IMG/VR virus record: IMGVR_UViG_3300045988_099253
Source of the DNA: a virus
DNA length: 45,539 nt
Reading direction: 5' to 3' (one strand)
Part shown: positions 9,462 through 45,539 of the stretch, one piece after another
How positions within the stretch are numbered: the stretch's first letter is position 1
How the letters are laid out: each line of letters begins with the position of its first letter
Program-made: the position numbers and the translations under genes
The notes under the pieces: model-generated
The model's input: only the letters and a program-made list of their open reading frames with translations
Told to the model about the DNA's origin: nothing
Databases searched by the model: none

Positions 9462-9575
9462 ATGTATATTGACCCGTTTTGGGCCGGGGTGGCTGCTACG
9501 CTCCTGGCAGAGGTGGCAGCAATCACAGCATTAGTTATCATCAAGGTAAAAAAAGAAATCGGAGGTAAAGAGTAA
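9462..9575 (+). CDS. Small single-TM peptide (37 aa)
   Basis: SD AGGAGGAAA; hydrophobic core AGVAATLLAEVAAITALVII. Confidence 0.4.
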   Translation: MYIDPFWAGVAATLLAEVAAITALVIIKVKKEIGGKE

Positions 9576-11626: not shown

Positions 11627-11772
11627 TTGATGGAACGAAACTGGTTGGATGGCTTAGGGGGCAGCAGTCAATTACTCCCTTATCTTACGCCGAAAAAGTT
11701 TTATATGAAAAAATAATCCATCATGTCGTAAATATGATGGAGGAAGAGGGTGTTAAAAACGGAGAACGGTAA
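11608..11772 (+). CDS. Small hypothetical protein (54 aa)
   Basis: SD GGAGG 7 nt upstream of the ATG. Confidence 0.4.
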   Translation: MLEHKVIDGTKLVGWLRGQQSITPLSYAEKVLYEKIIHHVVNMMEEEGVKNGER

Positions 11773-22639: not shown

Positions 22640-23320
22640 ATGACATTTGAGGAGTTTTGCGTAGAAAATGGAAAAAGGCAAAAAGAAGAAGTACGTCAGA
22701 CTGGAAAATACTCTCATGGAATGGCTGGAACAAGGCTTTATAGAATATGGTCTGGAATGAAAATAAGGACTTCAGAAAATGCTCAGTCGCATAATAAAGT
22801 TGCATATTTTGATAGAGGAATAAAGGTATGCGAAGAATGGGAAAGATTTGAAGCGTTTTTATTTTGGGCTTATATAAGCGGATACAATAAAGGCTTAACG
22901 ATAGACAGGATAGACGTTGACAAAGGATATTCCCCTGATAATTGCCGTTGGGTTCCGCTGAAATGGCAAAATAATAATAAACAGAGTAGTTGGAAGATAG
23001 AGTATCAAGGACAGACAAAAACTGTAGGAGAATGGGAACATTTTTTCGGTGTTCGGCGCGAATATATCAGAGGAAAACTTAATCATGGCTGGACGTTTGG
23101 AGAAATTGTAGAAAATATAAAAAATCCCACAACGCTGAACAAGAACAATAAAAGCGGAATAAAAGGAGTTCTGTTTGACAATAACCATTCAAAATGGAGG
23201 GCTTATATTTCCGTAGGTGGGAAGCGTGTGGAAGATAGAGTTTTCCGAACAAAGGAAGAAGCTATAGAAGCAAGAAAACAAATGGAGTTAAGATATTGGG
23301 GTTATACCAATATTGAATAA
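22640..23320 (+). CDS. HNH-type homing endonuclease with a C-terminal AP2 DNA-binding domain
   Basis: TRLYRIWSGMKIR..., LTIDRIDVDKGYSPDNCRWV, and the AP2-like SGIKGV....SKWRAYISVGGKRV....F.TKEEAIEARK. Confidence 0.7.
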   Translation: MTFEEFCVENGKRQKEEVRQTGKYSHGMAGTRLYRIWSGMKIRTSENAQSHNKVAYFDRGIKVCEEWERFEAFLFWAYISGYNKGLTIDRIDVDKGYSPDNCRWVPLKWQNNNKQSSWKIEYQGQTKTVGEWEHFFGVRREYIRGKLNHGWTFGEIVENIKNPTTLNKNNKSGIKGVLFDNNHSKWRAYISVGGKRVEDRVFRTKEEAIEARKQMELRYWGYTNIE

Positions 23321-23333
23321 AGGGGGCGATTGA

Positions 23334-23420
23334 ATGAGTAGTTTGTATCCAGATTTTGTTGATACCTGTGGCTGGGGCAAGGTTGACGGGATTTGCGGGG
23401 CAAACTGCCGAACGTCATAG
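23334..23420 (+). CDS. Minor capsid protein middle fragment (MSSLYPDFVDTCGWGKVDGICGANCRTS*), in the same frame as 21555-22361
   Basis: Has its own SD AAAGGGGG and ATG supplied at the insertion edge. Conserved YPDF..CGWG...CGANCR motif. Confidence 0.45.
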   Translation: MSSLYPDFVDTCGWGKVDGICGANCRTS

Positions 23421-23793
23421 CTTCGGCCCGTACTATGAGGGACAAGAAAATCCCTATAAAGATATAATGACAGCCGATAACGTTCGCATAGAAAAGCTGG
23501 AGCAACGCCAGCGTACCCTTGAGCGTCGTGTCCGCAAGACAAAGCGGGAGGTCATGGGGCTACAAGAGGCCGTGGATAAATGCCAGGACGAGGCGGCAAG
23601 GTTTGAATTGCAACAGACCCTTGACCGAAAATCCTATCTCCTGTCCCGGCAGAATAAGGCATACAATGAGTTTTGCAAAGAGAACAGTTTGCGACCGCTT
23701 TCAGAACGCCTCCAGATTGCCAAGTGGTCAAGAGAACAGGCGGCAAAAGCCAGAGGGGCGGCGCGGCGGTATCAGAATACGAAAGGGGAATGA
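23356..23793 (+). CDS. Minor capsid protein C-terminal fragment, in the +1 frame. Family-like sequence starts about 23412 (RHSFGPYY...).
   Basis: The conserved motif NCR/RHSF is broken across two frames at 23406-23420. The C-terminal coiled coil plus NKAYNEFCKENSLRPLSERLQ is typical of the family. Confidence 0.55.
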   Translation: MLIPVAGARLTGFAGQTAERHSFGPYYEGQENPYKDIMTADNVRIEKLEQRQRTLERRVRKTKREVMGLQEAVDKCQDEAARFELQQTLDRKSYLLSRQNKAYNEFCKENSLRPLSERLQIAKWSREQAAKARGAARRYQNTKGE

Positions 23794-23918
23794 TTATGCC
23801 AATTATGATACAAGGGATCATAGCAACGAATCAAGCCAATGCAATTAGGCAGAGGAGAGAAGAAGAGGAAAAACGTAAGAAAGAGAAGGACAGGAAAGAA
23901 AGTGAGCGCAAGAAGTGA
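23790..23918 (+). CDS. Small hypothetical protein with a highly charged C-terminus (42 aa)
   Basis: ATGA overlap; SD AAAGGGGA. Confidence 0.35.
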   Translation: MIMPIMIQGIIATNQANAIRQRREEEEKRKKEKDRKESERKK

Positions 23919-24292
23919 GCAGATGGAAACAATTCAATCCTAATCCCAGCGCCCGCCGTGTAGGCGATTGCGTTATCCGGGCGATATGCAAGGCCCTTGA
24001 CATTGATTGGGAGACAGCATTTTCCGGTGTGATGGTTAAGGCGTGTCAGCTTTCGGATATGCCGTCTGCCAACGTTGTGTGGGGAGCGTATCTTCGGGAC
24101 AACGGATTCCGGCGGCATATCGTAGACGATCACGGACAGTATATTTACACAGTGGAGGACTTTTGCCGGGATCATCCGGTGGGAACATATATCCTGGCTA
24201 TTGACGGACATGTGGTGTGCATACAGGACGGGTATTATTGGGATACATGGGACAGCGGACAGGAGATACCTATTTATTACTGGGAGAGATAA
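23915..24292 (+). CDS. Conserved phage protein, possible papain-like Cys/His fold
   Basis: VGDCVIRAI...MPSANVVWGAYL...GHVVCIQDGYYWDTWDSG pattern, recalled from many phages and plasmids. Confidence 0.6.
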   Translation: MSRWKQFNPNPSARRVGDCVIRAICKALDIDWETAFSGVMVKACQLSDMPSANVVWGAYLRDNGFRRHIVDDHGQYIYTVEDFCRDHPVGTYILAIDGHVVCIQDGYYWDTWDSGQEIPIYYWER

Positions 24293-24293
24293 T

Positions 24294-24473
24294 ATGAGTA
24301 GATGGCTAGAGCAACTTCCGGACGGAACATACAAAGTAGATGTTTATGACAAAGAAGGCTGTAAATATTTCTGTAATGAAGTATGTTGTAATGACCAGTG
24401 CAAAATGTGTTGTGACTTTCCGGACCCAGACGAGGATTGTAAAATATGCCAATATTTTGAACCGGAGGACTGA
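24294..24473 (+). CDS. Small Cys-rich protein (59 aa)
   Basis: ORF begins 2 nt after the upstream stop; 10 Cys residues. Confidence 0.4.
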   Translation: MSRWLEQLPDGTYKVDVYDKEGCKYFCNEVCCNDQCKMCCDFPDPDEDCKICQYFEPED

Positions 24474-24476
24474 TAC

Positions 24477-24779
24477 ATGGACGTAATGGAGACAGTACAG
24501 ACGATACTTGCAATTTGCGGAGGTATTTCCGTTATTGGCGGTGCGGCGGCGGTGATCCACAAGTGGATTGCTCCGGCGGTTAAACTAAATGACCGGGTGG
24601 AGACACTGGAAAGACACGACAAAAGAGATTATGAGGCCATGCAGGAAATCAGAGAAAGAGACAGCCTCATCATGGAAACGCTGGTGACTATGCTTAACAG
24701 CCAGATATCCGGGAACAACGTGGAGCAGTTAAAAAAAACGAGAGACAAGCTCATTTCCTATCTGGCACAGACGCAGTAA
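24477..24779 (+). CDS. N-terminal TM plus coiled-coil protein (BhlA/UviB-like architecture)
   Basis: TM helix ILAICGGISVIGGAAAVI followed by a charged helix. Confidence 0.5.
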   Translation: MDVMETVQTILAICGGISVIGGAAAVIHKWIAPAVKLNDRVETLERHDKRDYEAMQEIRERDSLIMETLVTMLNSQISGNNVEQLKKTRDKLISYLAQTQ

Positions 24780-24790
24780 GGAGAATCTTT

Positions 24791-25054
24791 TTGAAGGTAT
24801 ATGATTTCACGGTGCCACAGCTGGCATATTACGAAGAATTTTGCAATTTCAGCCCACAGGAATCCGCGCTTTTTGATCTCAGAAAGAAGGGCGTACCTCT
24901 GGAACAATGTGCGGAGATTATGCACTGTGAAATGACAAATGTCAAGAAGATTAGCCGAAGAGTAAATAATAAGATTATACAGTTGACAGACAGTAAACGC
25001 ATGAATGAGTGGATAAACAAGGTTTACTGGCCAAAAGTAATTAACAGGGAATAG
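24791..25054 (+). CDS. Small sigma-region-4/LuxR-like HTH regulator
   Basis: SPQESALFDLRKKGVPLEQCAEIMHCEMTNVKKISRRV is typical of region 4 HTH. AT-rich. TTG start. Confidence 0.5.
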   Translation: MKVYDFTVPQLAYYEEFCNFSPQESALFDLRKKGVPLEQCAEIMHCEMTNVKKISRRVNNKIIQLTDSKRMNEWINKVYWPKVINRE

Positions 25055-25062
25055 TTTTTATG

Positions 25063-25329
25063 CTATTCCCATTTTTCAGAGCAATATCCGATAGCTTGAG
25101 GGATGGAGTAATTTTCGCCTCCACATCTTTGTGTTAGAACATAGCGACAGTCTTTCCAGCCTATTCGACTATCATCACCCAGTATTTCACTTAAGGATAA
25201 ATCCTCAAAAGATATAAGCCCATGCCATTCTGCTAAAATGTTATTGAACATCTCTTCTTTTGAATTGAAAACTTTCTTTTCTCTCATTGCTTCTTCTAAT
25301 CCTCCGCGATGAGGCCGATAGATAAACAT
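25063..25329 (-). CDS. Hypothetical protein (minus-strand moron)
   Basis: SD AGGAGGA upstream. AT-rich, and on the opposite strand to the whole late region. Confidence 0.55.
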   Translation of the reverse strand: MFIYRPHRGGLEEAMREKKVFNSKEEMFNNILAEWHGLISFEDLSLSEILGDDSRIGWKDCRYVLTQRCGGENYSIPQAIGYCSEKWE

Positions 25330-25435
25330 AATATAGTCCTCCTATTTTTTAGAATATAATAGCACTTTTTATATACTTTTTAAAGCCTTTAACAGCACTT
25401 TAAGAGCCTGTCAGAGGCTTATTTTTTATGCCATA

Positions 25436-25468
25436 ATTTAGTCATACAAAGTCATTGATTTAGTCATA
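25436..25468 (+). promoter_or_regulatory. Phased AGTCAT repeats / ATTTAGTCATA direct repeat upstream of the 25481 module
   Basis: ATTTAGTCATA at 25436-25446 and 25458-25468. A third AGTCAT lies at 25450-25455. Confidence 0.3.
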
Positions 25469-25480
25469 GGAGGGACAGGC

Positions 25481-25948
25481 ATGGCATTACCATACACGCC
25501 TGGATATGGGTACAATCCATATCAGTTTGGGCAAATGAATCCATTACAGCCGCAAATGGACCGGCTGGCGCAGATGCAGGCCCAGTATCAGCAACCGCAG
25601 CAATCCCAGCAAGTAAACCAGGGGATTTTGTGGGTCCAGGGCGAGGCGGGGGCCAAGTCGTATCTTGTGGCTCCAAACACAAGCGTCCTTCTGATGGATT
25701 CCGAAACTTCCAATTTTTACATAAAGACCACAGATGCCGCCGGGATGCCGACGCTCCGGACGTTTGCTTATAAAGAGGTTGTTTTGGGCTCGCAGGAGCC
25801 GCAGAAACAGGCCGAAATAAATCTGGACGATAAATATGTTACCAGACAGGAATATGACGATTTACGGGGCAAATACGAAGAATTGTACAGCTATCTTGAA
25901 TCGGCAACAAAGCCAGAAGGAGGTAAGCATGGCGAATCCATTGTTTAA
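25481..25948 (+). CDS. Hypothetical protein with a Q/P-rich N-terminus
   Basis: SD GGAGGGA. Conserved-looking core GILWVQGEAGAKSYLVAPNTSVLLMDSE..FYIKT. Confidence 0.6.
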   Translation: MALPYTPGYGYNPYQFGQMNPLQPQMDRLAQMQAQYQQPQQSQQVNQGILWVQGEAGAKSYLVAPNTSVLLMDSETSNFYIKTTDAAGMPTLRTFAYKEVVLGSQEPQKQAEINLDDKYVTRQEYDDLRGKYEELYSYLESATKPEGGKHGESIV

Positions 25949-26141
25949 CGCTTTGAATGGTGGGGGCCCATCTGGAATGATGGAACAGTTCCAGCGTTTC
26001 CGGAAAGAAATGGAAGGTAGGAACCCCAATGAGGAGATCAATAAACTGTTACAGTCTGGCCGGATAAGCCAGCAGCAACTTAACCAGGCCCAGCAGATGG
26101 CCCAGCAGATGCAGGGCGTATTCAAAGGCTTTTTTAAATAG
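25929..26141 (+). CDS. Small Q-rich hypothetical protein
   Basis: SD GGAGGTAAG upstream of the ATG at 25929. Confidence 0.5.
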   Translation: MANPLFNALNGGGPSGMMEQFQRFRKEMEGRNPNEEINKLLQSGRISQQQLNQAQQMAQQMQGVFKGFFK

Positions 26142-26196
26142 TACATAACCGGGTGCACACGGTTTGTAAATATCATAATCGGAGGAGATTATTACT

Positions 26197-26880
26197 ATGA
26201 CAGACGGATTAACTGCTTCTGATGTTGCCGTTTTAACTGGCGGCACAGGGAGAAATGACGGCTTCGGTGGAGATTGGGGAGCCTGGATCATCCTGTTTTT
26301 AATTTTCGGTATGTTTGGCTGGGGCGGCTTCGGCGGTTGGGGCGGAAATGGTGGAGGCGCAAACTCTCCGGCATTCCAGGGATATGCGACCCGCGCTGAT
26401 ATCGACGCAGCACTGTCCACACAGGGAATCGAAAACGGTATCCAGAATCTTTCCGGACAGCTTTGCAACGGCCTTGCTGGTGTAAATGCGAATCTGTCCA
26501 ATCTGGGTTATCAGATGCAGCAGTGTTGCTGCGACACCAGAGAGGCAATCGCTGGCGTAAACTACAATATGGCAGCCCAGACCAACATCCTCCAGAATAC
26601 CGTAAACAACGGATTCCGCGATGTGATCGAGGCGCAGAATGCCGGTACCCAGCGTATCATTGATCTGTTCACGCAGGACAAGATCCAGTCCTTACAGACT
26701 GAGTTACAGTCCGCACAGCTCCAGCTGTCCAACAATGCACAGACCAATAGCATTATCAACGCGCTGAGACCTACACCGGTACCCTCTTATCCGGTAATGT
26801 CCCCGTATACATCCATCATCAACCCGACAGGCTTTAGCTTTGGCGGCGGATGTGGTTGTAATACAGGATGCGGATGCTAA
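26197..26880 (+). CDS. Gly/Trp-rich membrane protein with a Cys-rich tail (GGGCGCNTGCGC)
   Basis: SD GGAGGAG. TM helix WGAWIILFLIFGMFGW flanked by G-rich tracts, plus a long Q/N-rich coiled coil. Confidence 0.6.
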   Translation: MTDGLTASDVAVLTGGTGRNDGFGGDWGAWIILFLIFGMFGWGGFGGWGGNGGGANSPAFQGYATRADIDAALSTQGIENGIQNLSGQLCNGLAGVNANLSNLGYQMQQCCCDTREAIAGVNYNMAAQTNILQNTVNNGFRDVIEAQNAGTQRIIDLFTQDKIQSLQTELQSAQLQLSNNAQTNSIINALRPTPVPSYPVMSPYTSIINPTGFSFGGGCGCNTGCGC

Positions 26881-26969
26881 AACTGCATACGGAGTTTCTT
26901 TCAGACCATCTTGTTGACATCAACAAAATGGTTCTGGATGTTCGGCTGATGCCGTTATTACGCAGATGG

Positions 26970-26993
26970 ACAGGCCGCAAAGCCTGTCCTTTT
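26970..26993 (+). terminator. Rho-independent terminator
   Basis: ACAGGC-cgcaaa-GCCTGT followed by CCTTTT. Confidence 0.5.
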
Positions 26994-27012
26994 GCGCAGA
27001 AGGGAGAATATT

Positions 27013-27423
27013 ATGATTGAGTTAGTAAATACAGCGCCAGTCACTGTGCCGGTGGGACAGTCAATCCCGTTTTCGGTGGTTGCCACAAAGGGCGGATGTG
27101 CAGAAAGGCACAGGGCCGGGAGCGCACAGATCACGCTTGCGAAGCCCGGTAGATATCTGGTTACATTTTCCGGTAATGTCGCAGTACCGACCGGAGAAAC
27201 GGTAGGAGAAGTGGCCCTGGGAATCGCCAGAGACGGAGAAATCCTCGGCGGGACGGTCATGCGCGCTACTCCGGCAGCCGTAGAACAGTATTTTAATGTA
27301 TCGTCCCAGACATACGTTGACGTGTTCTGCGGATGCTGCGAAAACGTTTCCGTTAAAAACGCCGGAACGATTCCGGTCCTGGTAGACAACCCGAACATTA
27401 CAGCTGTCCGGGTATGCGGTTAA
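27013..27423 (+). CDS. Beta-sandwich protein resembling BclA-C/C1q-TNF-like domains
   Basis: SD AGGGAGAA. The pattern PGRYLVTFSGNVAVP...VALGIARDGEILGGT...NAGTIPVLVDNPNITAVRV resembles exosporium BclA C-terminal domains. Confidence 0.5.
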   Translation: MIELVNTAPVTVPVGQSIPFSVVATKGGCAERHRAGSAQITLAKPGRYLVTFSGNVAVPTGETVGEVALGIARDGEILGGTVMRATPAAVEQYFNVSSQTYVDVFCGCCENVSVKNAGTIPVLVDNPNITAVRVCG

Positions 27424-27435
27424 GGAGGGCAGACC

Positions 27436-27987
27436 ATGAGTTATAAATTAATGCAGAATATCCGGGAGGAACTGGATAAAATCGCGGAAAAGGGTCTGAA
27501 CACAGGGAACCTTGAAACCGCATACAAACTTATCGACATGCTGAAGGACATGGAGAACGTCGAATACTGGAAATGCAAAGAGGGCTATTACAATGCGGTC
27601 CTTGACGAGATGGAAGGCAGCCGTGGCCAGAGCGATTACAGCGAGAGACGGAAACGTGACAGTATGGGACGGTACAGCCGGGAGGACGGAAGAACCATGC
27701 CGGACTATGAAAACGGGTCCTCTTACGCCCGCCGTGGCGAGCATTATGTAAGAGGACATTACAGCCGGGCCAATGGTGCCAACGACCCGTATGCTGAGTA
27801 TATGGACAGCAAACAGTCTTACCGTAATGGTAAATCCGAGGACTGCAAGCGGCGTATGCTGGCCGCCCTAGAGGAGCATATGGATGCTTTGACCGAGGAG
27901 CTGGGAGATATGAGTCGGGATTCAGATTGCAGAGAAGAGAGGGAGACCATCTCTCGTTATGTGGACAAACTGCGTAAGATGATGTAA
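27436..27987 (+). CDS. Hypothetical charged protein
   Basis: SD AAGGAGGG; 183-aa ORF. Confidence 0.6.
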   Translation: MSYKLMQNIREELDKIAEKGLNTGNLETAYKLIDMLKDMENVEYWKCKEGYYNAVLDEMEGSRGQSDYSERRKRDSMGRYSREDGRTMPDYENGSSYARRGEHYVRGHYSRANGANDPYAEYMDSKQSYRNGKSEDCKRRMLAALEEHMDALTEELGDMSRDSDCREERETISRYVDKLRKMM

Positions 27988-27993
27988 ATGAGG

Positions 27994-28018
27994 GCGGTGG
28001 GGAGACTCACCGCTTTTT
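27994..28018 (+). terminator. Rho-independent terminator
   Basis: GCGGTG-gggagact-CACCGC followed by TTTTT. Confidence 0.7.
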
Positions 28019-28355: not shown

Positions 28356-28384
28356 CGCCCGGTTCGCTACCCCCGGGCGTTTTT
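28356..28384 (+). terminator. Rho-independent terminator immediately before the tRNA
   Basis: CGCCCGG-n10-CCGGGCG followed by TTTTT. Confidence 0.55.
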
Positions 28385-28456
28385 GGGAAATAGCTCAGTA
28401 GGTAGAGCGGCGGCCTTATAAGCCGCGTGCCAGAGGTTCGATTCCTCTTTTCCCAA
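28384..28456 (+). tRNA. tRNA-Ile (anticodon UAU), no encoded CCA
   Basis: A full cloverleaf was folded by hand: acceptor TGGGAAA/TTTCCCA, D arm GCTC-agtaggta-GAGC, anticodon arm GCGGC-cTTATaa-GCCGC, variable loop GTGCC, T arm AGAGG-ttcgatt-CCTCT. Confidence 0.8.
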
Positions 28457-28533: not shown

Positions 28534-29175
28534 ATGCAGAATATCGAAGCGATTTTGACAGAACTGGGAATTGAAGTTCCGGCAGACAAGAAAGAAAACC
28601 TTACAAAAAAGGTGGCAGAGAATTACATCACGAAAGCTGAACATGAAAAGAAGCTGGGAAAGGTTGAGACCGACCGGGACACCTGGAAGGCGAAGGCCGA
28701 GACGGCAGAAACCACTCTGAAAGGCTTTGAAGGTGTTGACCTCGACACTATGCAGAGGGAACTATCTGACTGGAAAAAGAAGGCCGAGGATGCCGAGAAG
28801 GATGCACAAGCTAAGCTGTATGAAAGGGATTTTGCGGACGCTCTGAAAACAGAGTTTGAAGGAATCAAATTTTCCAGTGAGGCAGCGAAAAGAGCCATCA
28901 TGACGGAGGTCAAGGATGCTGGGCTGAAACTGAAGGATGGAAAGATTCTCGGACTGAATGACCTTATTGCCCAAATGAAGGAAAAGGATGCTTCGGCGTT
29001 TGTCGATGACGAGCAGATCAAGGCCCAGCAGAATGCGGCAAGATTTACACAGCCAATCGGCAAGCAGAACCAGGGCGGAAATATGACAAAGGAGCAGATT
29101 GAAGCGATCAAAGACACCAGCGAGCGCCAGGCGGCTATCGCCAATAACCTTCATCTGTTCGGAAAAACCGAATAA
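28534..29175 (+). CDS. Scaffolding protein (GP20-like)
   Basis: SD AGGAGGA. Highly charged coiled coil immediately upstream of the major capsid gene. Confidence 0.75.
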   Translation: MQNIEAILTELGIEVPADKKENLTKKVAENYITKAEHEKKLGKVETDRDTWKAKAETAETTLKGFEGVDLDTMQRELSDWKKKAEDAEKDAQAKLYERDFADALKTEFEGIKFSSEAAKRAIMTEVKDAGLKLKDGKILGLNDLIAQMKEKDASAFVDDEQIKAQQNAARFTQPIGKQNQGGNMTKEQIEAIKDTSERQAAIANNLHLFGKTE

Positions 29176-36253: not shown

Positions 36254-39181
36254 TTGAAGCCGGATGGAACCGTTGTAATTGACACAAAATTGAATACAAA
36301 TGGACTAGAAGCTGGATCTCATGACGCAGAACAGGAAATAAGGAGAATGGCTCAAGCCATCCAAGATTTGAGCACTACATCCAAGATTGCACTTCAGCGC
36401 CAGGTAAATCAATTTGTCAAGTTGAATTCTGCTTATGCTCAAAACGAAAAAAAACTGAAACAGCTGGAAGAAGAGATGGCTCTCTATGGAGAAACCAAGA
36501 TTCCTACACAAGAATATTCAAATGCCGAAAAAGAAATCCAGAAAATAAGTCAAGCACTGGATCGCGCAATAGAACGTCAGATAAAATTCTACGAAACTGG
36601 AGGAAATATAAAGAGCCGTGCTTTTGCGGGAATGGAATATGATATTGAACGGTTAAGCCGGCAGTTGGATGAGGCTAACGAAAGAAAAAAACAGCTCGTT
36701 TCCAGTGGAAAGGCTTTCACTTTGGGCAAGGATACTGATAAGTTTTCTCAAATGTCTGTCAGATATGAAAAGGAAAGTCAGAAACTGGCGAATACAAGCG
36801 CTATTCTGGGTACGACATTTGCAAAAGTAGAGGACGAACTGAATAAGTATAAAGAAAGACTGAGGGGAATAGATAACAGCCAGAAAAAGGCGCAAAAGAG
36901 TGGAAAAAAATTCAATAATGAACTAAGAAGTACGGGAAAAAATGCTAAAAAAGCCCAATACAGCATAGGGCGTATGCTTGCAACATCCATTCTCTTTAGC
37001 ACCGTATTCCGGGCAATATCTATGGTCACAGCCGGGCTTAAAGAAGGGATGGACAACCTGGCGCAGTATTCGGATGATACAAACCTGGCCCTGTCGCTGC
37101 TGTTGTCGGCTGTGACTCAGCTTAAAAATGCGTTTGCAACGGCGTTTAGCCCGCTTATAGAGTTCGTGGCTCCGGCCCTTGCCCAGTTTATCAATCTTTT
37201 ATCCCAGGCTGTAACCTGGACGGCGCAGCTCCTGGCAGCCCTTACCGGGAAGGATACGTTTGTTAAAGCGGTAAAAGTACAGCAAGATTATGCAGATAGC
37301 CTTGACAAGACAAAGAACGAAACCGAAGAGGCGGCGGATGCGACAGAAAAAAGCCTGGCTCCTTTTGACCAGCTTATCCAGCTCACACAGAAAAAGAAAG
37401 ACAAGGATAAGGATAAAAACGAATTAAAGCCGGAAGATATGTTTGTTACCGAGGAAGTATCCAACGGTATAAAGGTTCAAGCCGACACAATCAAAGAAAC
37501 ATTCGGACAATTATTTGCGCCGCTTAAACAATCGTGGGAAGAAAATGGTCCACAGGTTTTATCATCTGTAAAAAATCTCTTCTCCGCAATCAAACAGCTT
37601 GCTGGTGATGTAGGCGCATCATTTATGCAAGTGTGGAATGCTGAAGGATATGGCAAGGCCATCACAGATGATTTGCTGGTTACGTTTTCAAATCTTGTGG
37701 ATACAGTCGCTAACTTAATCACAAATTTTGATAAGGCCTGGGTATCCGGAGGAACTGGAACAAGTATACTCCGACATTTAGGAGACATTATACTCGAAAT
37801 AACCGGCTTCTTTAGGGCCGCATCAGAAAGCCTTAAAGAATGGTCTGCGGATCTTGACTTTACCCCGCTTCTAAGGAGTTTTGACAATGTATTGATCGCC
37901 ATAAGGCCGATTGTTTCGGATGTTGGAGATAATTTATTGTGGATGCTTAATGAGGTTCTGTTGCCTATCGCTGCATGGGGAGTGGAACAAGCTCTTCCAG
38001 AAGCGTTTAATTTGATTGCTGCCGCATTAAGGGTAGTACATAGCGTACTTGAGGCTTTGAAACCTTTAGGAATGTGGCTATGGGATAATTTCCTTAAGCC
38101 ATTAGGGCAGTGGACAGGATCAGTGATAATTGCAGCACTTAAAAAAATTACAGAATGTTTGGAAAGGTTCTCTGGATGGATTTCCGAAAATCAATCAGTA
38201 GTACAAACTGGAGCAATAACAGTGGCTGCCTTTTTTGCGGCCTGGAAAATAACAGAGATGCTTTCATTTATACAGCAGTCTGGCGGTGTTGTAAAAGCAC
38301 TGGAAAACATTACAAAGGCTGTTGCTGGATCAACTTTGGCTAAAATCAAGGATTCGGCGGAAACGGCGTATCTCAATGCTTTATATGCAAAAGATTTTTT
38401 GACCAATATAGTCAAGGCAACATCTGAGGTTGTTAAGCATACAGCACAGTTTATTAAGTCAACAGCAGCAAAATGGGCGGAGGTAGCAGCTCAGAAGGCT
38501 TTAACTCTTGCTACACAAGCGTGGAACGGGATTTGTTCCGCCGCAAGGGCGGCTACAACATTCTTTTCCAGCTCAATGGGAACTCTGGCAATAAAAATAG
38601 GGGCGGTCCTTGTTGTATTTAAAGCAATCTATGAATTGGCATCTATGGTATCCAGGGCATGGGATAAAATGACTCCAGATGAAAGAGTGGCAACAAAAAT
38701 TATTGCTGTGGCCGGGGCCATCGCTTTGGTAGTTGCTGCCGCCGCCGCATTTATGCACGACTATGCAACATTGGCAATCGCTGGTTCTATAGCGGCCATA
38801 GCCGGGCTTTCGATAGCCGGAATATCATCGGGAGCCAGCAGCAGAAGTGCCTCATATTCACGTTCTGGATATTCCCTTGATACTTATTCCACAATCCCCT
38901 ATAAGATGCCCCGCCTGGCCACTGGAACGGTAGTACCGCCCAGAGCCGGAGAGTTTGCGGCTATCCTGGGAGATAACAAGCGTGAGACTGAGGTGGTATC
39001 GCCGCTATCCACGATGAAACAGGCGTTAAAAGAAGCGCTCTCTGAGAGCGGATTTGGTGCGGGAGAACGAGATATCAACATCGAACTGGTACTTGACGGG
39101 CAACGCTTTGCCCGGGCTGTGTACAAGGCCAATAACCAGGAGAAGCAGCGTGTAGGTGTAAGGATGGTGACGAATGGATAA
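36254..39181 (+). CDS. Tape measure protein
   Basis: 975 aa with coiled coil, multiple TM-like hydrophobic stretches and the expected position. Confidence 0.9.
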   Translation: MKPDGTVVIDTKLNTNGLEAGSHDAEQEIRRMAQAIQDLSTTSKIALQRQVNQFVKLNSAYAQNEKKLKQLEEEMALYGETKIPTQEYSNAEKEIQKISQALDRAIERQIKFYETGGNIKSRAFAGMEYDIERLSRQLDEANERKKQLVSSGKAFTLGKDTDKFSQMSVRYEKESQKLANTSAILGTTFAKVEDELNKYKERLRGIDNSQKKAQKSGKKFNNELRSTGKNAKKAQYSIGRMLATSILFSTVFRAISMVTAGLKEGMDNLAQYSDDTNLALSLLLSAVTQLKNAFATAFSPLIEFVAPALAQFINLLSQAVTWTAQLLAALTGKDTFVKAVKVQQDYADSLDKTKNETEEAADATEKSLAPFDQLIQLTQKKKDKDKDKNELKPEDMFVTEEVSNGIKVQADTIKETFGQLFAPLKQSWEENGPQVLSSVKNLFSAIKQLAGDVGASFMQVWNAEGYGKAITDDLLVTFSNLVDTVANLITNFDKAWVSGGTGTSILRHLGDIILEITGFFRAASESLKEWSADLDFTPLLRSFDNVLIAIRPIVSDVGDNLLWMLNEVLLPIAAWGVEQALPEAFNLIAAALRVVHSVLEALKPLGMWLWDNFLKPLGQWTGSVIIAALKKITECLERFSGWISENQSVVQTGAITVAAFFAAWKITEMLSFIQQSGGVVKALENITKAVAGSTLAKIKDSAETAYLNALYAKDFLTNIVKATSEVVKHTAQFIKSTAAKWAEVAAQKALTLATQAWNGICSAARAATTFFSSSMGTLAIKIGAVLVVFKAIYELASMVSRAWDKMTPDERVATKIIAVAGAIALVVAAAAAFMHDYATLAIAGSIAAIAGLSIAGISSGASSRSASYSRSGYSLDTYSTIPYKMPRLATGTVVPPRAGEFAAILGDNKRETEVVSPLSTMKQALKEALSESGFGAGERDINIELVLDGQRFARAVYKANNQEKQRVGVRMVTNG

Positions 39182-39575
39182 CACGGTATTTACCATTGAT
39201 GGGCTTAATCTGAGACTCTGGGTAACAGAGCTTAAACGGTCATTTGCGGTAACGGACACGGAAAATTCTGGCCGTGTCCAGTCCTACCGGATGCACCGGG
39301 ACATTATCGGGACCTTTTACAATTACACCCTAAAAATCGACCCGGAAAGAAGCAATCCGGCAGACTATGATACCTTTTACGAGATCATCTCCTCCCCGAC
39401 AGAATCTCATGAACTGGAATTCCCATACGGCCAGGAAACGTTGTCATTTTCCGCCTATGTTACCAGCGGAGAAGATGGTCTCAGAATCAACCAGAAGGCA
39501 CCAGACGGGCAGAAAAACCGCTGGAGCGGGCTGTCCGTCACGTTTACTGCAATGGAGCCGCAGAGGAGGCCGTAG
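39174..39575 (+). CDS. Distal tail protein-like
   Basis: First gene after the tape measure gene. Confidence 0.5.
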   Translation: MDNTVFTIDGLNLRLWVTELKRSFAVTDTENSGRVQSYRMHRDIIGTFYNYTLKIDPERSNPADYDTFYEIISSPTESHELEFPYGQETLSFSAYVTSGEDGLRINQKAPDGQKNRWSGLSVTFTAMEPQRRP

Positions 39576-41363
39576 ATGTTTTTTAAAATTGTAGACAGGG
39601 ACCCGCCGAAAGCCGGAGAGGGGATAAAAATTGTATACGATGATGTGGCCCCATATGCCAAGGAAAACAGTACCCCACAGGTAGTCAAGGCTGGATTGTA
39701 TCCCCACAAGGGATTGTATCCCCGTAAGGGCCTGTATCCGGCCAAAACAACGATAGAGAGAGAGTTCCCGGACCTCCGCCGGGACGATCTCTCCTATCCC
39801 GGATACGCCCTGTGTTATCCTGGATTTTCTCTCCTTAACGGGCAGTATATCAACTTTCCAGACAAGCCAGCGGATTATGGATATGTCAGTGCCGAGTATT
39901 CGGACGAGAACGGGAACCTGGCATACAACTTCTCCAGGGCGGGGCTCCGGCCCCATTCCGGCTTGTACCCAAGAATCCTTCTTTATCCGGTCAAAACAGA
40001 GTCCTGGCGTATGGAGTATCCGGCACTGACCATCTCATTCAACGGAAAATTCTCCAGTGTAGGTATCCTTCTCACCTTTAACATGATGTCTGGAGACTAC
40101 GCCAAAGATATCAATATCAAGTGGTACGATGGGACCACTCTGCTGAGCGAAAAGGACTTTGTGGCCGATGATGTGCGGTATTTTTGCAGCAATTATGTGC
40201 GGTCGTATAACCGCATTATACTGACGTTCAAAACGACATCCAGGCCGTACCGCCCGGTCTTTTTGACCAGGATTGACTATGGCATTTACAGAGACTTTCT
40301 GGACGACGAGCTGCTCCAGACAGAGTGCCTCCAGGAAATCAACGCCATATCAGAAAATATCAGCGTAAATACACTGTCCTTTACCGTCCGAACAAAGAGT
40401 AATATCCCCTTTGATTTGCAGAAAAAGCAGAGGCTCGGCCTGTATTTTGATGGGAAGTTACTCGGAAATTTCTATTTGAAGAACGGGGCCAGGAAAAACA
40501 AGACCGACTACTACATGGATTCACATGACGCTGTCGGGATCCTGGATGGTAACGAATATCCGGGCGGGATTTATTCCGGGCAGAAAGTAGCTGATGTAAT
40601 TCAAGAGATCTTTGGCGGAGAGGATTTTAATTATTATCTGGATACAGCGTATGCAAACACCACATTGACCGGGTACATACCGTATACCACAAAGCGTAAT
40701 GCTCTTGTGCAGATTGCTTTTGCCATTGGTGCGGTGGTAGATACCAGTAATTCGGATCATGTATCCATATATCCGCAGCAGACGGAAGTAACGGCTGAGT
40801 TTTCCGGTGATGATACATTCACGGGCCTCACGTTGGAGCACAGTGACATCGTGACTGGGATCCGGCTTACTGTACACAGCTACCAGGAATCAAGCGAAGA
40901 AGAGGAGCTGTACAATGACACTCTGTCCGGTACCGCCGAGATCGTCTTTGGGGACCCACACCACCATCTGACCATCACTGGCGGCACGATCAAGAGCAGC
41001 GGCGCAAATTACGCAGTTATCACCGGCACCGGTGGCACGGTAACGCTTAAGGGAAAGAAGTACAACCACCTTACGAATCAGCTTACCAGGGACAATCCAG
41101 ATATTGTATATAACCGAAATATCAAGGAGATTACAGATGCCACTCTGGTGCATTCCGGGAACGCAGAAGCTGTGATTAACAGGGTCTATGCGTATTATCA
41201 GCGGGCGGAGAGTGTGGTTGGCGATGTGCTGCTGAAAAACCGTGTTCTGGGCGAGGTAGTGAGCGCTGATACCGGCTATGACGGCAAGCGTACCGGAACC
41301 CTGGAGAGCATAGATTACAGCTTCACAAAAGAGATAAAAGCGAGGGTGGTAATCCATGAGTAG
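39576..41363 (+). CDS. Tail-associated/baseplate protein (Tal-position) with GLYPxK hexapeptide repeats
   Basis: 595 aa, second gene after the tape measure gene. Confidence 0.65.
   Translation: MFFKIVDRDPPKAGEGIKIVYDDVAPYAKENSTPQVVKAGLYPHKGLYPRKGLYPAKTTIEREFPDLRRDDLSYPGYALCYPGFSLLNGQYINFPDKPADYGYVSAEYSDENGNLAYNFSRAGLRPHSGLYPRILLYPVKTESWRMEYPALTISFNGKFSSVGILLTFNMMSGDYAKDINIKWYDGTTLLSEKDFVADDVRYFCSNYVRSYNRIILTFKTTSRPYRPVFLTRIDYGIYRDFLDDELLQTECLQEINAISENISVNTLSFTVRTKSNIPFDLQKKQRLGLYFDGKLLGNFYLKNGARKNKTDYYMDSHDAVGILDGNEYPGGIYSGQKVADVIQEIFGGEDFNYYLDTAYANTTLTGYIPYTTKRNALVQIAFAIGAVVDTSNSDHVSIYPQQTEVTAEFSGDDTFTGLTLEHSDIVTGIRLTVHSYQESSEEEELYNDTLSGTAEIVFGDPHHHLTITGGTIKSSGANYAVITGTGGTVTLKGKKYNHLTNQLTRDNPDIVYNRNIKEITDATLVHSGNAEAVINRVYAYYQRAESVVGDVLLKNRVLGEVVSADTGYDGKRTGTLESIDYSFTKEIKARVVIHE
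39693..39746 (+). repeat. 3 x 18-bp coding tandem repeat (GLYPHK GLYPRK GLYPAK). A diverged second set lies at 39942-39995.
   Basis: Read directly. Confidence 0.85.
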
Positions 41364-41799
41364 ATTTATTGACCCATTAATATTTGACCGGGTCCAGGCA
41401 GACGTAGACCAGATGACAAAAAAGGCATACATCGCATACGACGACCTTAACCGGGTGGAAAATGCGGTGTGGCAGATATCGGAAACCCTTAACCACATGG
41501 GATACCGGAATACGATTGTAAGGAGAGATGCCTGGAAGATGGATGATTTCCGGACAGAGGCTGATATGGTCCGGCTCCGGAATAATATCCAGGCGATCCG
41601 CAACGCATATTACACCCCTTCCAGTACGCCACTTACGCCGGACCGAATCACCTACACGTCCATATACCAGGCGAATGCGATAGAAAAAATACTGTATGAT
41701 CTGGGGACGCTTGTGGATAAGATAGAGCCCGGCCACCATCATCTGGGATTCCGGATAGGGACCCGGGCACTGGGAAACAGGAGGGAAACATGGCCTTAA
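41356..41799 (+). CDS. Tail/baseplate accessory protein
   Basis: The DRVQADVDQMTKKAYIAYDDLNRVENAV pattern is common in Clostridia phage tail modules. Confidence 0.55.
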   Translation: MSRFIDPLIFDRVQADVDQMTKKAYIAYDDLNRVENAVWQISETLNHMGYRNTIVRRDAWKMDDFRTEADMVRLRNNIQAIRNAYYTPSSTPLTPDRITYTSIYQANAIEKILYDLGTLVDKIEPGHHHLGFRIGTRALGNRRETWP

Positions 41800-42329
41800 A
41801 AACCAACTACCAGAATGACGTTTTCTCCGGCAAGAGAAAATACAATCTGACTAACAACTCAGACGGGACTATCAGCCTGGATGATGTGACGGTCTACAAC
41901 AAAGTCGGAGATATATTTAATGCGGACGATATTAATGCCACGAATAAAGTGGTGAATGAAACATCGGCCGGATTTGAGGCGGTAAAACAGGACAATGCCA
42001 AATTTAAAGAAAAGGTAAACAGACAGGTAACTGGATTGACAAATGATGTTGGAGCCATTAAGGCGGTAAAAACAGTGACACTGCCCGCATCAAAATGGAG
42101 CACTTCGGCCCCATACACGCAGACAGTAACGGTATCCGGTGTTACAGCGGAGGACAGCCCAGTGATCGCCTTGTATATCTCTGGCAGCCCAGGCGCAGCA
42201 GCTGTGAAAGCGATGCGAAAGGCATTCGGATATCTGGACCGGGCTGTTACCGGAAACGGATCCATCACATTTTACTGCTACGAGAAAAAGCCGGCTGCCG
42301 ACTTTAGCGTATCGGTTAAGGGGGAGTAA
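41790..42329 (+). CDS. Tail fibre-like protein
   Basis: KTNYQNDVF...DDINATNKVVNE motif. Confidence 0.55.
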   Translation: MALKTNYQNDVFSGKRKYNLTNNSDGTISLDDVTVYNKVGDIFNADDINATNKVVNETSAGFEAVKQDNAKFKEKVNRQVTGLTNDVGAIKAVKTVTLPASKWSTSAPYTQTVTVSGVTAEDSPVIALYISGSPGAAAVKAMRKAFGYLDRAVTGNGSITFYCYEKKPAADFSVSVKGE

Positions 42330-42331
42330 AA

Positions 42332-42748
42332 ATGGAATGTTTACTGATGCAAAGCGGGAGCGGGTTTGACCCGGCGGAGGTCACCGCGACTCCCGGAAGT
42401 GTAAAAAGCGGGAAGAAATTCCTGGGCGCTGGGAGCGATGACGTACAGACCGGAACGCTTGCCACGGTCCCCAAAGTGGATGTAAAACTGGGAATCAATG
42501 AGTCCTATGCCATCAAACCCGGATATCATACCGGGGAGGACGTGGTATCTCAGTCCGGGATCCCGACATCACAGGGGCTGTCGATCAACCCCACCGCCGG
42601 GGGCCAGACTGTGCAAACGGCTGGCACTTATTACACATCGGACACATACGTCCAGAGTATTGAAAACCTCCGACCGGAGGTGATAAAGGATGGCGTCGTA
42701 ATCGCAGACATCACCGGGACGTACCAGGGATTTGTAGATGAGGGGTAG
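42332..42748 (+). CDS. Tail fibre-like protein
   Basis: TATPGSVKSGKKFLGAGSDDVQTGTL motif, shared with 42752-43651. Confidence 0.55.
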   Translation: MECLLMQSGSGFDPAEVTATPGSVKSGKKFLGAGSDDVQTGTLATVPKVDVKLGINESYAIKPGYHTGEDVVSQSGIPTSQGLSINPTAGGQTVQTAGTYYTSDTYVQSIENLRPEVIKDGVVIADITGTYQGFVDEG

Positions 42749-42751
42749 AAT

Positions 42752-43651
42752 ATGGCGGAAGCATTAATACAGCTTGTAAATCAGAATGTAGATATTGATG
42801 GTCTTACGGCCAACGAGGCAGATGTTTTTGATGGGGCCACGTTTATTGGCCAAGGATCAGAAGCAATACGGGAAGGGACCGGGGTTACACAGGGAGCCCC
42901 CACGCTGGGACTATCATTAAATGGGCGTGTGACTATCCCGGCCGGAAAATACACAGGCGGAAAGGTGCAGCAGTCCATCCAGGTCCTGGGAGAGCAGAGG
43001 ATCAATCCGACATCAAAAAATATCAAAATCCCCACAAAGGATATGTATATGGCCGGAAATATCATCGTTGCATCAATCCCCAACCTTAAGCCAGAGAATA
43101 TCAAAAAGGGGGAGTATGTCGGCGGTGTAGGGCCTGGCACCTGGGAGGGATACATTGTCCGGGATCCGGCGACTTTTTACTATCGTGGTACGTTTGCCCC
43201 AGGACAATCTATCATGGCGTTTAAATTTTCTGGGTCATCGGATATCATGTCTCCCAACCTCGGCAAAAAGGCAATGGAGTTTTACGGAAATAACGATTCC
43301 AGAAGGAAACATTCTGTTTTCTTGTTTAATTCTCCGATTGACATTACCTCAAAAAGCAAATTGACGGTAAAAGGGACGTACCACAGGGATGCAGCTGGAA
43401 CATCGACCAATATGGTTCTGGACATATCGGGATACCAGAGCAAGGCGAGTGCCGGAGCCACTTACACAGGTTTAAACACTGGGGACCGTATTTTCCTTAA
43501 ACAACAGCGGTTTCCGACCGCACAAGGGACTTATCCGTATACGGTTGAGGTGGATATCTCATCCTATTCCCGGATTATTTATCTGTATTTCCTTGTAACG
43601 ATGAACCGCCCAGATGATTATATGACCATTGACTCTATACAGTTTACATAA
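42752..43651 (+). CDS. Tail fibre-like protein, paralogous N-part plus a distinct C-terminal domain
   Basis: LTANEADVFDGATFIGQGSEAIREGT and NLKPENIKKGEYVGGVGPGTWEGY parallel motifs in 42332-42748. Confidence 0.6.
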   Translation: MAEALIQLVNQNVDIDGLTANEADVFDGATFIGQGSEAIREGTGVTQGAPTLGLSLNGRVTIPAGKYTGGKVQQSIQVLGEQRINPTSKNIKIPTKDMYMAGNIIVASIPNLKPENIKKGEYVGGVGPGTWEGYIVRDPATFYYRGTFAPGQSIMAFKFSGSSDIMSPNLGKKAMEFYGNNDSRRKHSVFLFNSPIDITSKSKLTVKGTYHRDAAGTSTNMVLDISGYQSKASAGATYTGLNTGDRIFLKQQRFPTAQGTYPYTVEVDISSYSRIIYLYFLVTMNRPDDYMTIDSIQFT

Positions 43652-43663
43652 AGGAGATTGACT

Positions 43664-44464
43664 ATGGAAGAGAATAAAAAAGACGTATTACCGCTCGAGG
43701 GAGAACCGCTGACCGCGCCGCAGATATCTGAACCGGTGGTGAACGCCCTGGCCGCCGCGCTGAGTAAGATTGAGACGTATGTGCCTACACAGTACATTAA
43801 TGATGGGCCGCCGGACATTGACGCTGACCATCTCAACCACGCAGAACAGGCTATCATGCGGGTCACGAATTTAGCCAACGGAGCCGCCGATGCAATCTCC
43901 GCATTGCAATCCCAGGTTACTCAGCTAAATAATAATATGTCAAAATTTGATGTTTATCATCGAGATGTTACGGGAAGTCTCAATGATGATAAAATCATTC
44001 AAACAGCTCTGGAAGATTTTAAAACCTCTATTGTTACCAATAAGCCGATACTTGTTGAAATTCAGAACCATTTGGGTGGCCGAGCACTGGCCGTGGGAAT
44101 TCAATCTCTTAGCAATTATAATTCGTTTTTGGTTATCACTTATTATGATCGACCAAAGGAATTTGTGTACGCATTGAATCACTGGGAGGTGTATGAACTC
44201 GTAACAAAGTCCGATTTAGGTGATCTAATTACTCACCGTAAAACAACTGGCAATACATCAGATTCTGGAAATATCACGATAAATAGACCAGAAGGATACT
44301 CATTGATTGGAGCATATATAAATTCGGTTTATGTCAGATTATCAATCCCAACAGTATACCAAAAAACAATTATTGTTAGATGCTTTGATGAAAACATGTC
44401 CCCATTAAAAAACACATTAGTTGAAGTGATATCGCTATGGATTAAAAAGGATATTTCTTATTAA
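43664..44464 (+). CDS. Phase-variable tail fibre: 91-aa constant N-terminus currently fused to cassette 1 (MSKFDVYH...)
   Basis: SD AAAGGAG. DADHLNHAEQAI fibre motif. The 38-bp inverted repeat lies in frame at codons for SALQSQVTQLNNN. Confidence 0.8.
   Translation: MEENKKDVLPLEGEPLTAPQISEPVVNALAAALSKIETYVPTQYINDGPPDIDADHLNHAEQAIMRVTNLANGAADAISALQSQVTQLNNNMSKFDVYHRDVTGSLNDDKIIQTALEDFKTSIVTNKPILVEIQNHLGGRALAVGIQSLSNYNSFLVITYYDRPKEFVYALNHWEVYELVTKSDLGDLITHRKTTGNTSDSGNITINRPEGYSLIGAYINSVYVRLSIPTVYQKTIIVRCFDENMSPLKNTLVEVISLWIKKDISY
43899..43936 (+). repeat. Left 38-bp inverted repeat (inside the fibre ORF)
   Basis: CCGCATTGCAATCCCAGGTTACTCAGCTAAATAATAAT. Confidence 0.9.
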
Positions 44465-44467
44465 TAA

Positions 44468-44974
44468 AATAATAATTTACGAAATGTCAATACCGCCATA
44501 AACGGATCTTTGCTAGATTACGCAAAAAATGTGAGCACATTTGAGAATGTATCCACTGGAGGAGACACTGCTGATCTCCCGAATGATAATGCTAGATATT
44601 GCGTTACCCATATTATGCATCGTGCCAATTCGTGGTTCATTTCTATTGAGGGGCGAGACAACCGATTATATACGAACTACAACAATGGTAATAATTGGAC
44701 CGGATGGCAAGCGACTGCCTTAAAGTCCGATTTAAAAGTTCTAAAAAAACCTGATGTCCAATTCTCTAACGGATTCGCGGAGATCTCATTTCCTGGGATA
44801 ACATATGACAGTGCTGTATGTATTAACCAAGAATACAGAAGTTCGGCGGGTGTGCAAAATCTTGTTTTTACTGCCCAGGTAAGACCTAACGAACTGATAA
44901 TATACGCCCGGAATGCAAATGATGGAAGTTCGTATAACGGGATTATACATATCATGGTAATAGCTATAGGATAG
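44468..44974 (+). CDS. Tail-fibre cassette 3 (silent): the frame opens with NNN right after the double stop of cassette 1; no SD or ATG
   Basis: Same architecture as cassettes 1 and 2 (N-part, ..LKSDL hinge, ~75-aa C-part). Its 5' end shares AAATAATAAT with the end of the inverted repeat. Confidence 0.5.
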   Translation, partial: NNNLRNVNTAINGSLLDYAKNVSTFENVSTGGDTADLPNDNARYCVTHIMHRANSWFISIEGRDNRLYTNYNNGNNWTGWQATALKSDLKVLKKPDVQFSNGFAEISFPGITYDSAVCINQEYRSSAGVQNLVFTAQVRPNELIIYARNANDGSSYNGIIHIMVIAIG

Positions 44975-44982
44975 AAATTAAT

Positions 44983-45000
44983 TAAACTGGAACCAGTTTA
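44983..45000. repeat. Perfect palindrome TAAACTGG-AA-CCAGTTTA between convergent cassettes 3 and 2
   Basis: Read directly; also present at 540-557. Confidence 0.7.
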
Positions 45001-45070
45001 TTGTAACTGTGTTATTCGTCTTTTTAGGTGAAACAATAATACTATTATCATTATTGCGAAAGATAGCCTG

Positions 45071-45517
45071 CTATTGGACAGGTATATACCAATAATCTAA
45101 TGTAACTTGACCTGTAATTGGTACGTCAGAAGTAATTTCCCTAAATCTAACATACCATTCATCATTGATAGATATTAAATCGCAAATCGCATTAGTATTA
45201 TTGGTATTGACACCGACTACAATCCCGAGTTTTGCTGCTAGTATACTAGCAGTCCCAGCCTCTGATAGATTTAGTGTTACTGTAGCCTTTTTGACTAAAT
45301 CGGACTTTGTAACGAGTTCGGTTTCAGTCCCCCATTGTCCATCAACTTCAGAATTAAATACAAGTTTTTTATCGTCCTCATTAAGCCTAAGCATCAGCAA
45401 GTTATTTGTAACTTTGTTGCGGAGATATACGTAAGCCCCTTGCTCAACCTGGCCAATTTCCAGAGAAGCATCCCTTGCTTTGAAATTATTATTTAGCTGA
45501 GTAACCTGGGATTGCAA
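45071..45517 (-). CDS. Tail-fibre alternative C-terminal cassette 2 (FKARDASLEIGQ...), silent in this orientation
   Basis: Begins in frame inside the right inverted repeat. No SD or ATG; in-frame stop upstream. Confidence 0.7.
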   Translation of the reverse strand: MQSQVTQLNNNFKARDASLEIGQVEQGAYVYLRNKVTNNLLMLRLNEDDKKLVFNSEVDGQWGTETELVTKSDLVKKATVTLNLSEAGTASILAAKLGIVVGVNTNNTNAICDLISINDEWYVRFREITSDVPITGQVTLDYWYIPVQ

Positions 45518-45522
45518 TGCGG
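45485..45522 (-). repeat. Right 38-bp inverted repeat
   Basis: Perfect reverse complement of 43899-43936. Confidence 0.9.
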
Positions 45523-45539
45523 GCGGGAATCAGCATTAC

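Follow-up and report, generated by a model that had tools for sequence, protein, structure and literature searches.

The DNA analysed here, referred to as the window, is the 45,539-nucleotide virus record IMGVR_UViG_3300045988_099253 of IMG/VR, a temperate long-tailed phage in which the last tail gene has, at its 3′ end, a 1548-bp AT-rich segment between perfect 38-bp inverted arms. This gene (43664–44464, + strand), preceded by an AAGGAG ribosome-binding site, is the putative fibre or receptor-binding gene expressed in the orientation found at the window end. Its product of 266 residues, to which the public protein DAI54610.1 is identical, comprises 91 constant residues and 175 residues of cassette 1. 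The gene is the last of the tail module, downstream of the tape measure gene and directly before the endolysin gene. The left arm (IRL, 43899–43936, +) lies within the fibre open reading frame (ORF) and encodes ..SALQSQVTQLNNN, and the right arm (IRR, 45485–45522, −) was located by the 38-bp repeat search. The 38-mer, CCGCATTGCAATCCCAGGTTACTCAGCTAAATAATAAT, has four copies in the window, at 43899–43936(+), 45485–45522(−), 18–55(+) and 1604–1641(−), with none expected by chance (100 shuffles). An earlier, sequence-only reading of this DNA had placed a perfect 38-bp inverted repeat in the last fibre ORF and had described the enclosed segment as AT-rich; the repeat search bears out the former, and GC contents of 0.32–0.41 in the segment and 0.46–0.52 in the flanks bear out the latter.

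The constant N-terminal part (91 aa; 43664–43936, +), whose last 13 codons form one repeat arm, probably serves to anchor the fibre on the tail. The same N-terminus is found at 80–100% identity in more than 100 database proteins with unrelated C-termini. Cassette 1 (175 aa, MSKFDV..., 43937–44464, +) continues it in frame and consists of two sub-domains joined at ELVTKSDL. Cassette 2 (137 aa, FKARDASLEIGQ..., 45071–45484, −) is silent in this orientation and reads in frame from the right arm; upstream of it, the right flank carries in-frame stops at window positions 2–4 and 8–10. Cassette 3 (165 aa, LRNVNTAING..., 44477–44974, +) is also silent and has no start codon, and is preceded by a partial site, AAATAATAAT (44467–44476, +), which corresponds to the last 10 nt of the repeat and lacks the crossover part. 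These reading frames agree with what had been described earlier, namely a plus-strand continuation of 175 residues fused in frame to the 91-residue constant part, and a minus-strand continuation of 137 residues with no start codon and an in-frame stop upstream. Because the startless cassettes abut the arms, a flip of the segment replaces the distal part of the fibre.

A role of the gene product as a tail fibre or receptor-binding protein, and hence in host range, is suggested by the position of the gene and by the domains of its homologues. Domains of the Gp53-like_C, H_lectin or Phage_fiber_rpt families occur in proteins with the same N-terminus or with related cassette halves; no match to Pfam or PHROGs was obtained for the cassettes of the window. 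Structure prediction, which had been proposed as a check, gave a poor model. The AlphaFold2 (AF2) model contains a long helix of residues 54–92, ending at the constant/variable junction, in a model of low confidence (mean predicted local distance difference test score, pLDDT, of 53). A Foldseek search of this model against the PDB gave no fold relative below E 0.05, and a profile search of PDB sequences gave no match for the fibre. Both the poor model and the absence of PDB relatives count against the receptor-binding part of the interpretation given below.

The two ends of the window carry the segment in opposite orientations. Bases 1–1641 are the exact reverse complement (100%) of 43899–45539 and thus contain the segment with both arms, bases 1–17 being the reverse-complemented right flank. 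In addition, a 55-nt direct repeat (1604–1658 and 45485–45539) has a spacing of 43,881 nt. We infer that the true genome is a 43,881-bp circle with a single copy of the segment, and that the copy at 1–1658 arose when the assembly ran on through the segment in its alternative orientation, there being no second physical copy; a de Bruijn assembler using k = 55 would have crossed the segment once per orientation. Because the 38-nt repeat is shorter than this presumed k of 55, both right-hand junctions should have existed in the reads. The window holds both of them, the reverse complement of cassette 2 joined through the repeat to the right flank at the window end, and the reverse complement of cassette 1 joined in the same way at about 1590–1660, where the sequence-only reading had also noted it and where it is present in the start copy. 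The one junction missing from the window is that of the left flank, the repeat and cassette 2. Between IRR and the endolysin gene lies a conserved non-coding right flank (1642–1807, +), the first 17 nt of which recur at 45523–45539. No RNA element was recognized in this flank by Rfam, whose sole match in the window is a tRNA elsewhere, and a promoter and terminator scan gave nothing above background.

The inversion is real, and both orientations occur in nature. All loci with the repeat core were surveyed in IMG/VR and in JGI/ENA metagenomes. The predicted fusion of the constant part with cassette 2 (228 aa, P0121) is found residue for residue in a public protein collection, encoded on contigs L014 (ERZ28656875) and L015 (ERZ1689805) from two other human-gut samples. 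Both contigs have the order left flank, repeat, cassette 2, reverse complement of cassette 3 and reverse complement of cassette 1, and their segments are 100% and 99.7% identical, respectively, to that of the window, in inverted orientation. Exact matches also exist for the predicted alternative fusions of the relatives L005 and L004, bringing the number found to three of the nine predicted. At the level of cassette pairs, MSKFDV/FKARDASL occurs in one orientation at the window end and in the other at the window start and in L014 and L015; FSVYKY/FKARDASM occurs in one orientation in L005 and L035 and in the other in L016–L021; and FQYKELT/LKVSYIPY occurs in one orientation in L004 and in the other in L031. 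Contigs L017–L021 terminate within the segment, a pattern expected of mixed orientations. The exchange of the distal fibre part by inversion, central to the sequence-only reading, is thereby confirmed by the fusion of the constant part with cassette 2 in L014 and L015 and by the flips in relatives.

The arrangement is conserved. The layout, consisting of the constant N-terminus, left arm, forward cassette, startless in-frame reverse cassette, right arm, right flank and endolysin, is kept in every retrieved lineage member that spans the segment, except L003, which has a degenerate second cassette. Across the lineage, about 20 clearly distinct types of cassette were seen. A search for the site in related phages, suggested by the earlier reading, returned the flipped pairs described above and a conserved repeat core of 33 nt, CCGCATTGCA[A/G]TCCCAGGTTACTCAGCTAAATA, which is followed by the codons AATAAT (encoding NN) or AGTGAT (encoding SD). 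A megablast search of 39000–45539 against the INPHARED phages gave no match. In two comparisons, L005 versus L016 and L014 versus the window, the segments are 100% identical while the flanking tail genes differ by 4–6%, which suggests that segments are exchanged between genomes via the repeats.

The fibre N-terminus recurs, at about 50–60% identity, in two further groups of phages. Group 2 (L010–L012) has 14–19-nt repeats, CAAATAACAATTTGAGT(AA), at the same codon position, together with in-frame reverse cassettes, and its members possess a tyrosine integrase in place of the large serine recombinase (LSR) of the window. No flipping was seen in group 2, where none of three alternative fusions and no additional loci were found. 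Group 3 (L040 and L041, from Lachnospiraceae and Clostridium metagenome-assembled genomes) has a four-site, four-cassette shufflon with sites [A/T]ATAGGGATAT of 10–11 nt, the repeat again being at the same codon position, and a gene for an Xer-like tyrosine recombinase (PF00589, E 2e-39) embedded in the array. Between the two shufflon loci (L041, 10205–12505; L040, 2105–4418), the first segment is flipped. Different sites, and apparently different recombinases, thus serve one fibre architecture, and among the three fibre lineages that of the window is the one with no visible dedicated enzyme.

The position of the exchange can be read from L004 and L031, which are the same phage with flanks 99.8% identical and which differ by a single inversion. 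An 898-nt block, including both arms, is 100% identical but inverted between them. Three core positions distinguish the two arms, GCATTGCA[G/A]TCCCAG[G/C]TT[A/G]C, as do the distal codons. Each of these differences has travelled with the cassette, which places the exchange within CCGCATTGCA, the 10-nt block at the outer end of the repeat. These 10 nt overlap an 8-bp palindrome, ATTGCAAT, beyond which dyad symmetry is weak. The longest unbroken identity between the two arms is 12 nt, well below the usual minimal homology for RecA-type recombination, and a site-specific mechanism is therefore favoured.

The search for a recombinase compared about 45 ORFs of the window with Pfam or PHROGs and used tblastn with serine, tyrosine and Xer-like probes. 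The only recombinase found in the window is the LSR (529 aa; 3966–5555, −), the phage integrase, which has Resolvase, Recombinase and Zn_ribbon_recom domains and matches a PHROG annotated 'integrase'. No tyrosine recombinase or second recombinase was detected in the window, and tblastn with the resolvase catalytic domain gave nothing there besides the LSR. Downstream of the segment follow the endolysin gene, a 99-aa ORF with no match, a 72-aa helix-turn-helix protein, a 134-aa Gp111-like protein and then the LSR. The small ORFs between endolysin and LSR occupy 2845–3775. In the circular form, 2.3 kb separate the LSR gene from the right arm, and in the prophage about 40 kb. In the prophage contigs L031 (at about 6165) and L026 (at about 99), homology to the window stops at 3940 and host DNA lies beyond, which locates the attP site of the integrase there, adjoining the LSR gene (3915–3965, with the crossover near 3940 and dyad symmetry of a flanking T-run and A-run). 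The integrated copies L095, L097 and L098 adjoin a Tad/T2SSE ATPase gene that is truncated and was probably the target of integration. The LSR is present in all six lineage members with enough sequence, all belonging to one clade, and is conserved in the relatives L008, L009, L016, L030 and L096.

On balance, the locus is probably a programmed, conservative switch in the last tail gene, operated by site-specific inversion with an enzyme that acts in trans. A flip would swap the 175-aa cassette 1 for the 137-aa cassette 2 as the distal, presumably receptor-binding, part of the fibre. The crossover would fall in the outer block CCGCATTGCA, and the remainder of each arm would travel with its cassette. 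As no enzyme is encoded at the locus, it must act in trans and may be either the phage's own LSR or a host recombinase. Several observations speak against this interpretation. A small serine invertase of the Gin/Cin type is absent from the locus and from the entire window by Pfam, PHROGs and tblastn alike. The repeat has no similarity to attP, and no further copy of it occurs in the genome at up to 3 mismatches. Homologues of the LSR (45–75% identity, in more than 40 other phages) come with neither such a fibre nor such a repeat. The crossover interval is defined by one informative pair, L004 and L031; the arms have been homogenised at some loci, and a given cassette can occur with either NN or SD distal codons (L005 versus L009), the last two features being likely results of occasional gene conversion or of exchange elsewhere in the arm.

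Homologous recombination between the 33–40-bp repeats, mediated by host RecA or by a phage annealing protein with no dedicated enzyme, could also invert the segment, in which case the repeat would be kept long and identical since homology drives the switching. A locus with no invertase is what this explanation predicts, and the repeats of the window's lineage are the longest of the three fibre lineages, the lineage with 10–11-nt sites having a dedicated recombinase. The frequent homogenisation of the arms points the same way, as does the ORF at 11750–12550, whose product has a weak Rad52-like match that falls short of the Pfam cutoff (E 1e-3); phage recombinases of the Rad52-like kind reportedly promote relaxed recombination (PMC3945230). 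However, the arms of L004 and L031 contain 3 mismatches and were exchanged in the 10-nt block of identity at their outer edge, and the sister lineage has the same in-frame architecture with repeats of only 14–19 nt. We consider homologous recombination unlikely.

Another explanation supposes no ongoing switching at all, only rare evolutionary inversions, two co-existing strains of opposite, fixed orientation having been merged in the assembly of the window. Metagenome samples are mixtures of strains, and the flanks of some flipped pairs are 4–6% apart, meaning that different strains carry different orientations. Yet L004 and L031 are flipped with flanks only about 0.2% apart, three of nine predicted alternative fusions are found exactly, and the startless in-frame cassettes have stayed intact in all members and across three diverged lineages, which requires that they be regularly used; such fixed strains are accordingly an improbable source of the pattern. 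Finally, that the copy at 1–1658 is a chimeric artefact of a phage with a single fixed fibre, the outcome that the sequence-only reading had named as fatal to it, is refuted in practice: the terminal inverted duplication is indeed an assembly product with no physical second copy, but the independent assemblies L014 and L015 contain the left flank–repeat–cassette 2 junction, and with a 38-nt repeat shorter than the likely k-mer of 55 nt the junction k-mers would need real reads.

Returning to the site-specific switch and its enzyme, the lack of attP likeness and the existence of switch-less LSR homologues leave the LSR as a candidate trans-acting invertase, with a trans-acting host enzyme just as possible. 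Among 49 LSR loci, the switch occurs only in the same clade, and the sister lineages with other repeats possess other recombinases. No extra copy of the repeat lies near the integrase gene in either lineage. That the phage's LSR also flips the fibre segment, acting on hybrid sites, is a doubtful proposition. Such a hybrid site would consist of a conserved 25-nt inner half-site, the palindromic crossover TTGCAA and divergent outer half-sites. If the LSR did flip the segment, one enzyme would control both lysogeny and host range, and the same sites would allow the exchange of whole cassette segments between co-resident phage genomes, which would explain segments that are 100% identical with flanks that differ by 4–6%. 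We note that the hexamer TCCCGC occurs 7–8 nt from the presumed crossover both in the outer flank of the right arm (1650–1660) and in the left half of attP (3925–3935), a weak and not significant hint of a common recombinase.

The locus shares with Mu G, P1 C, e14 P and p15B Min a constant N-terminus, inverted repeats within the gene and opposed startless C-termini, and with p15B Min also the possession of several cassettes. The likeness to Mu G/gin and P1 C/cin drawn in the sequence-only reading accordingly holds for the architecture and the inversion, but not for the enzyme. In the Gin, Cin, Pin and Min systems a small serine invertase (about 190 aa) adjoins the segment, whereas here there is none in the genome. 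Gin-type repeats contain 26-bp gix/hix-type crossover sites, each made up of two 12-bp half-sites on either side of a central dinucleotide, and a recombinational enhancer dependent on Fis is present in cis. The repeat of the window is apparently unrelated to those of Gin-type systems, and its crossover lies at the outer edge of a 33–38-nt repeat. Unlike in Mu-type systems, no tail-fibre assembly (chaperone) gene moves with the cassettes, and the host is Gram-positive, of the Clostridium class. Nor is the locus a shufflon as usually defined, by an adjacent tyrosine recombinase and at least three sites of 10–19 bp, as it has two full 38-bp arms. Shufflons of the R64 type nevertheless resemble it in having asymmetric sites, of which one arm and the crossover are conserved and the other arm varies from site to site, the variable arm here being the outer flank, and in swapping the C-terminal segments of a surface adhesin. 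In R64, the tyrosine recombinase Rci is encoded beside the shufflon and the sfx sites are 19 bp long. The target there is the PilV pilus adhesin, whereas here it is a phage fibre.

The closest published analogue that we found is the Rin shufflon of Bifidobacterium, together with a recombinase-less locus described in the same work (PMC6109161). Like the present system, Rin belongs to a Gram-positive gut prophage and swaps receptor-binding C-terminal cassettes behind a constant N-terminus. It differs in having an adjacent Xer-like tyrosine invertase, 11-bp rix sites and several cassettes, compared with two full 33–38-nt sites and no adjacent recombinase here. The Rin proteins and the fibre of the window are unrelated as far as tested; it is L040 and L041 that resemble Rin. 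The recombinase-less example is a second inverted locus of a Bifidobacterium prophage with no flanking recombinase, for which a trans-acting invertase was proposed (PMC6109161). Enzymes that act in trans on invertible regions with no neighbouring recombinase are represented by Mpi of Bacteroides fragilis and RecV of Clostridioides difficile (PMC6109161, PMC9881135). The invertible region of the window likewise has no neighbouring recombinase gene. The known examples of the Mpi and RecV type are chromosomal switches, mostly promoter switches, and we found no report of a global trans-acting invertase that acts on a phage fibre coding sequence.

Host-range switching by fibre inversion is textbook knowledge for Mu and P1, which have Gram-negative hosts. 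It has been reported once for prophages of Bifidobacterium (PMC6109161). Systematic surveys list tail fibres among the targets of inversion, the cases quoted in the parts consulted being from Proteobacteria or given with no host (PMC9881135, PMC5903667). No description of a fibre-inversion switch in phages of Clostridia was found in the literature searched, the coverage of which was incomplete. The conserved switch described here, presumably of host range, is real, and is a fixed feature of a whole human-gut prophage lineage, with about 20 tip modules and two tiers of exchange, one of whole cassettes and one of halves at the KSDL motif. In consequence, the assignment of phages to hosts from fibre sequences becomes less certain, and assemblies break or overshoot at the locus. 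The modules amount to a natural library of swappable receptor-binding parts for engineering phages against anaerobes that are hard to target.

The second tier of modularity is seen within the cassettes. Each consists of two sub-domains that meet at a (V/L)(T/K)KSDL motif, and cassette halves have been recombined between phages exactly at this motif. In the window, the ELVTKSDL linkers of cassettes 1 and 2 form an inner inverted repeat (44195–44219 and 45295–45319; 25 nt, 96%). The KSDL positions themselves are 44207–44218(+), 44723–44734(+) and 45296–45307(−), cassette 3 having a 12-nt core. In group 1, the lineage of the window, the linker codons are A.G TCC GAT followed by TTA, TTG, ATG or ATA in all 21 motif-bearing cassettes, despite the AT-rich context, whereas group 2 always uses TCG (AAG TCG GAT). 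The linker looks like an evolutionary hot spot of recombination at the DNA level rather than a switch. Flipping of sub-domains at the inner 25-nt repeat was considered and discarded, the exact chimeras of the N-terminal half of cassette 1 with the C-terminal half of cassette 2, and the reverse, being absent.

Cassette 3, which has no crossover part, is probably a stranded reserve cassette. The 10-nt direct repeat AAATAATAAT at 43927–43936 and 44467–44476 brackets cassette 1, and a deletion between its two copies would create an in-frame fusion of the constant part with cassette 3. Such a deletion, or secondary exchanges of the KSDL type, are probably the only routes by which cassette 3 can be reached. 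In other phages, including L036, domains like that of cassette 3 follow the constant part immediately, being joined to it at residue 92. Present use of cassette 3 itself found no support: the junction of IRL with cassette 3 does not occur in IMG/VR, and the exact fusion of the constant part with cassette 3 does not occur in the public protein collection. Behind cassette 2 lies a relic (44980–45051, −), the 3′ end of another cassette C-terminal half (..SPKKTNN.VTINWFQFN*). It is 96% identical to positions 1943–2014 of L001, where the sequence is intact, and the alternative proteins encoded by L005 and L008 contain the full version; the relic appears to be the scar of a module replacement.

Among the gut Clostridia, Anaerotruncus colihominis or a relative serves as the host; one predicted alternative fibre is identical to the A. 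colihominis protein WP_317399863.1. The endolysin (1808–2665, +) combines a CHAP domain with choline-binding repeats, and a LexA/CI-type repressor is encoded at 6359–6982 (−). The structural genes include those for the terminase (18584–19837), portal (19837–21261), scaffold (28534–29175) and tape measure (36254–39181) proteins. The tRNA gene recognized by Rfam (RF00005, 74 bits; 28384–28456) lies just upstream of the scaffold gene. Between the minor capsid and scaffold genes, an insertion of about 6 kb (22640–28000) consists largely of unknown ORFs, with an HNH endonuclease (22640–23320) among them. In the early region, an ORF with no family match (9575–10483) contains a 27-nt unit repeated 14 times in tandem (9926–10465), which encodes a 9-aa repeat.

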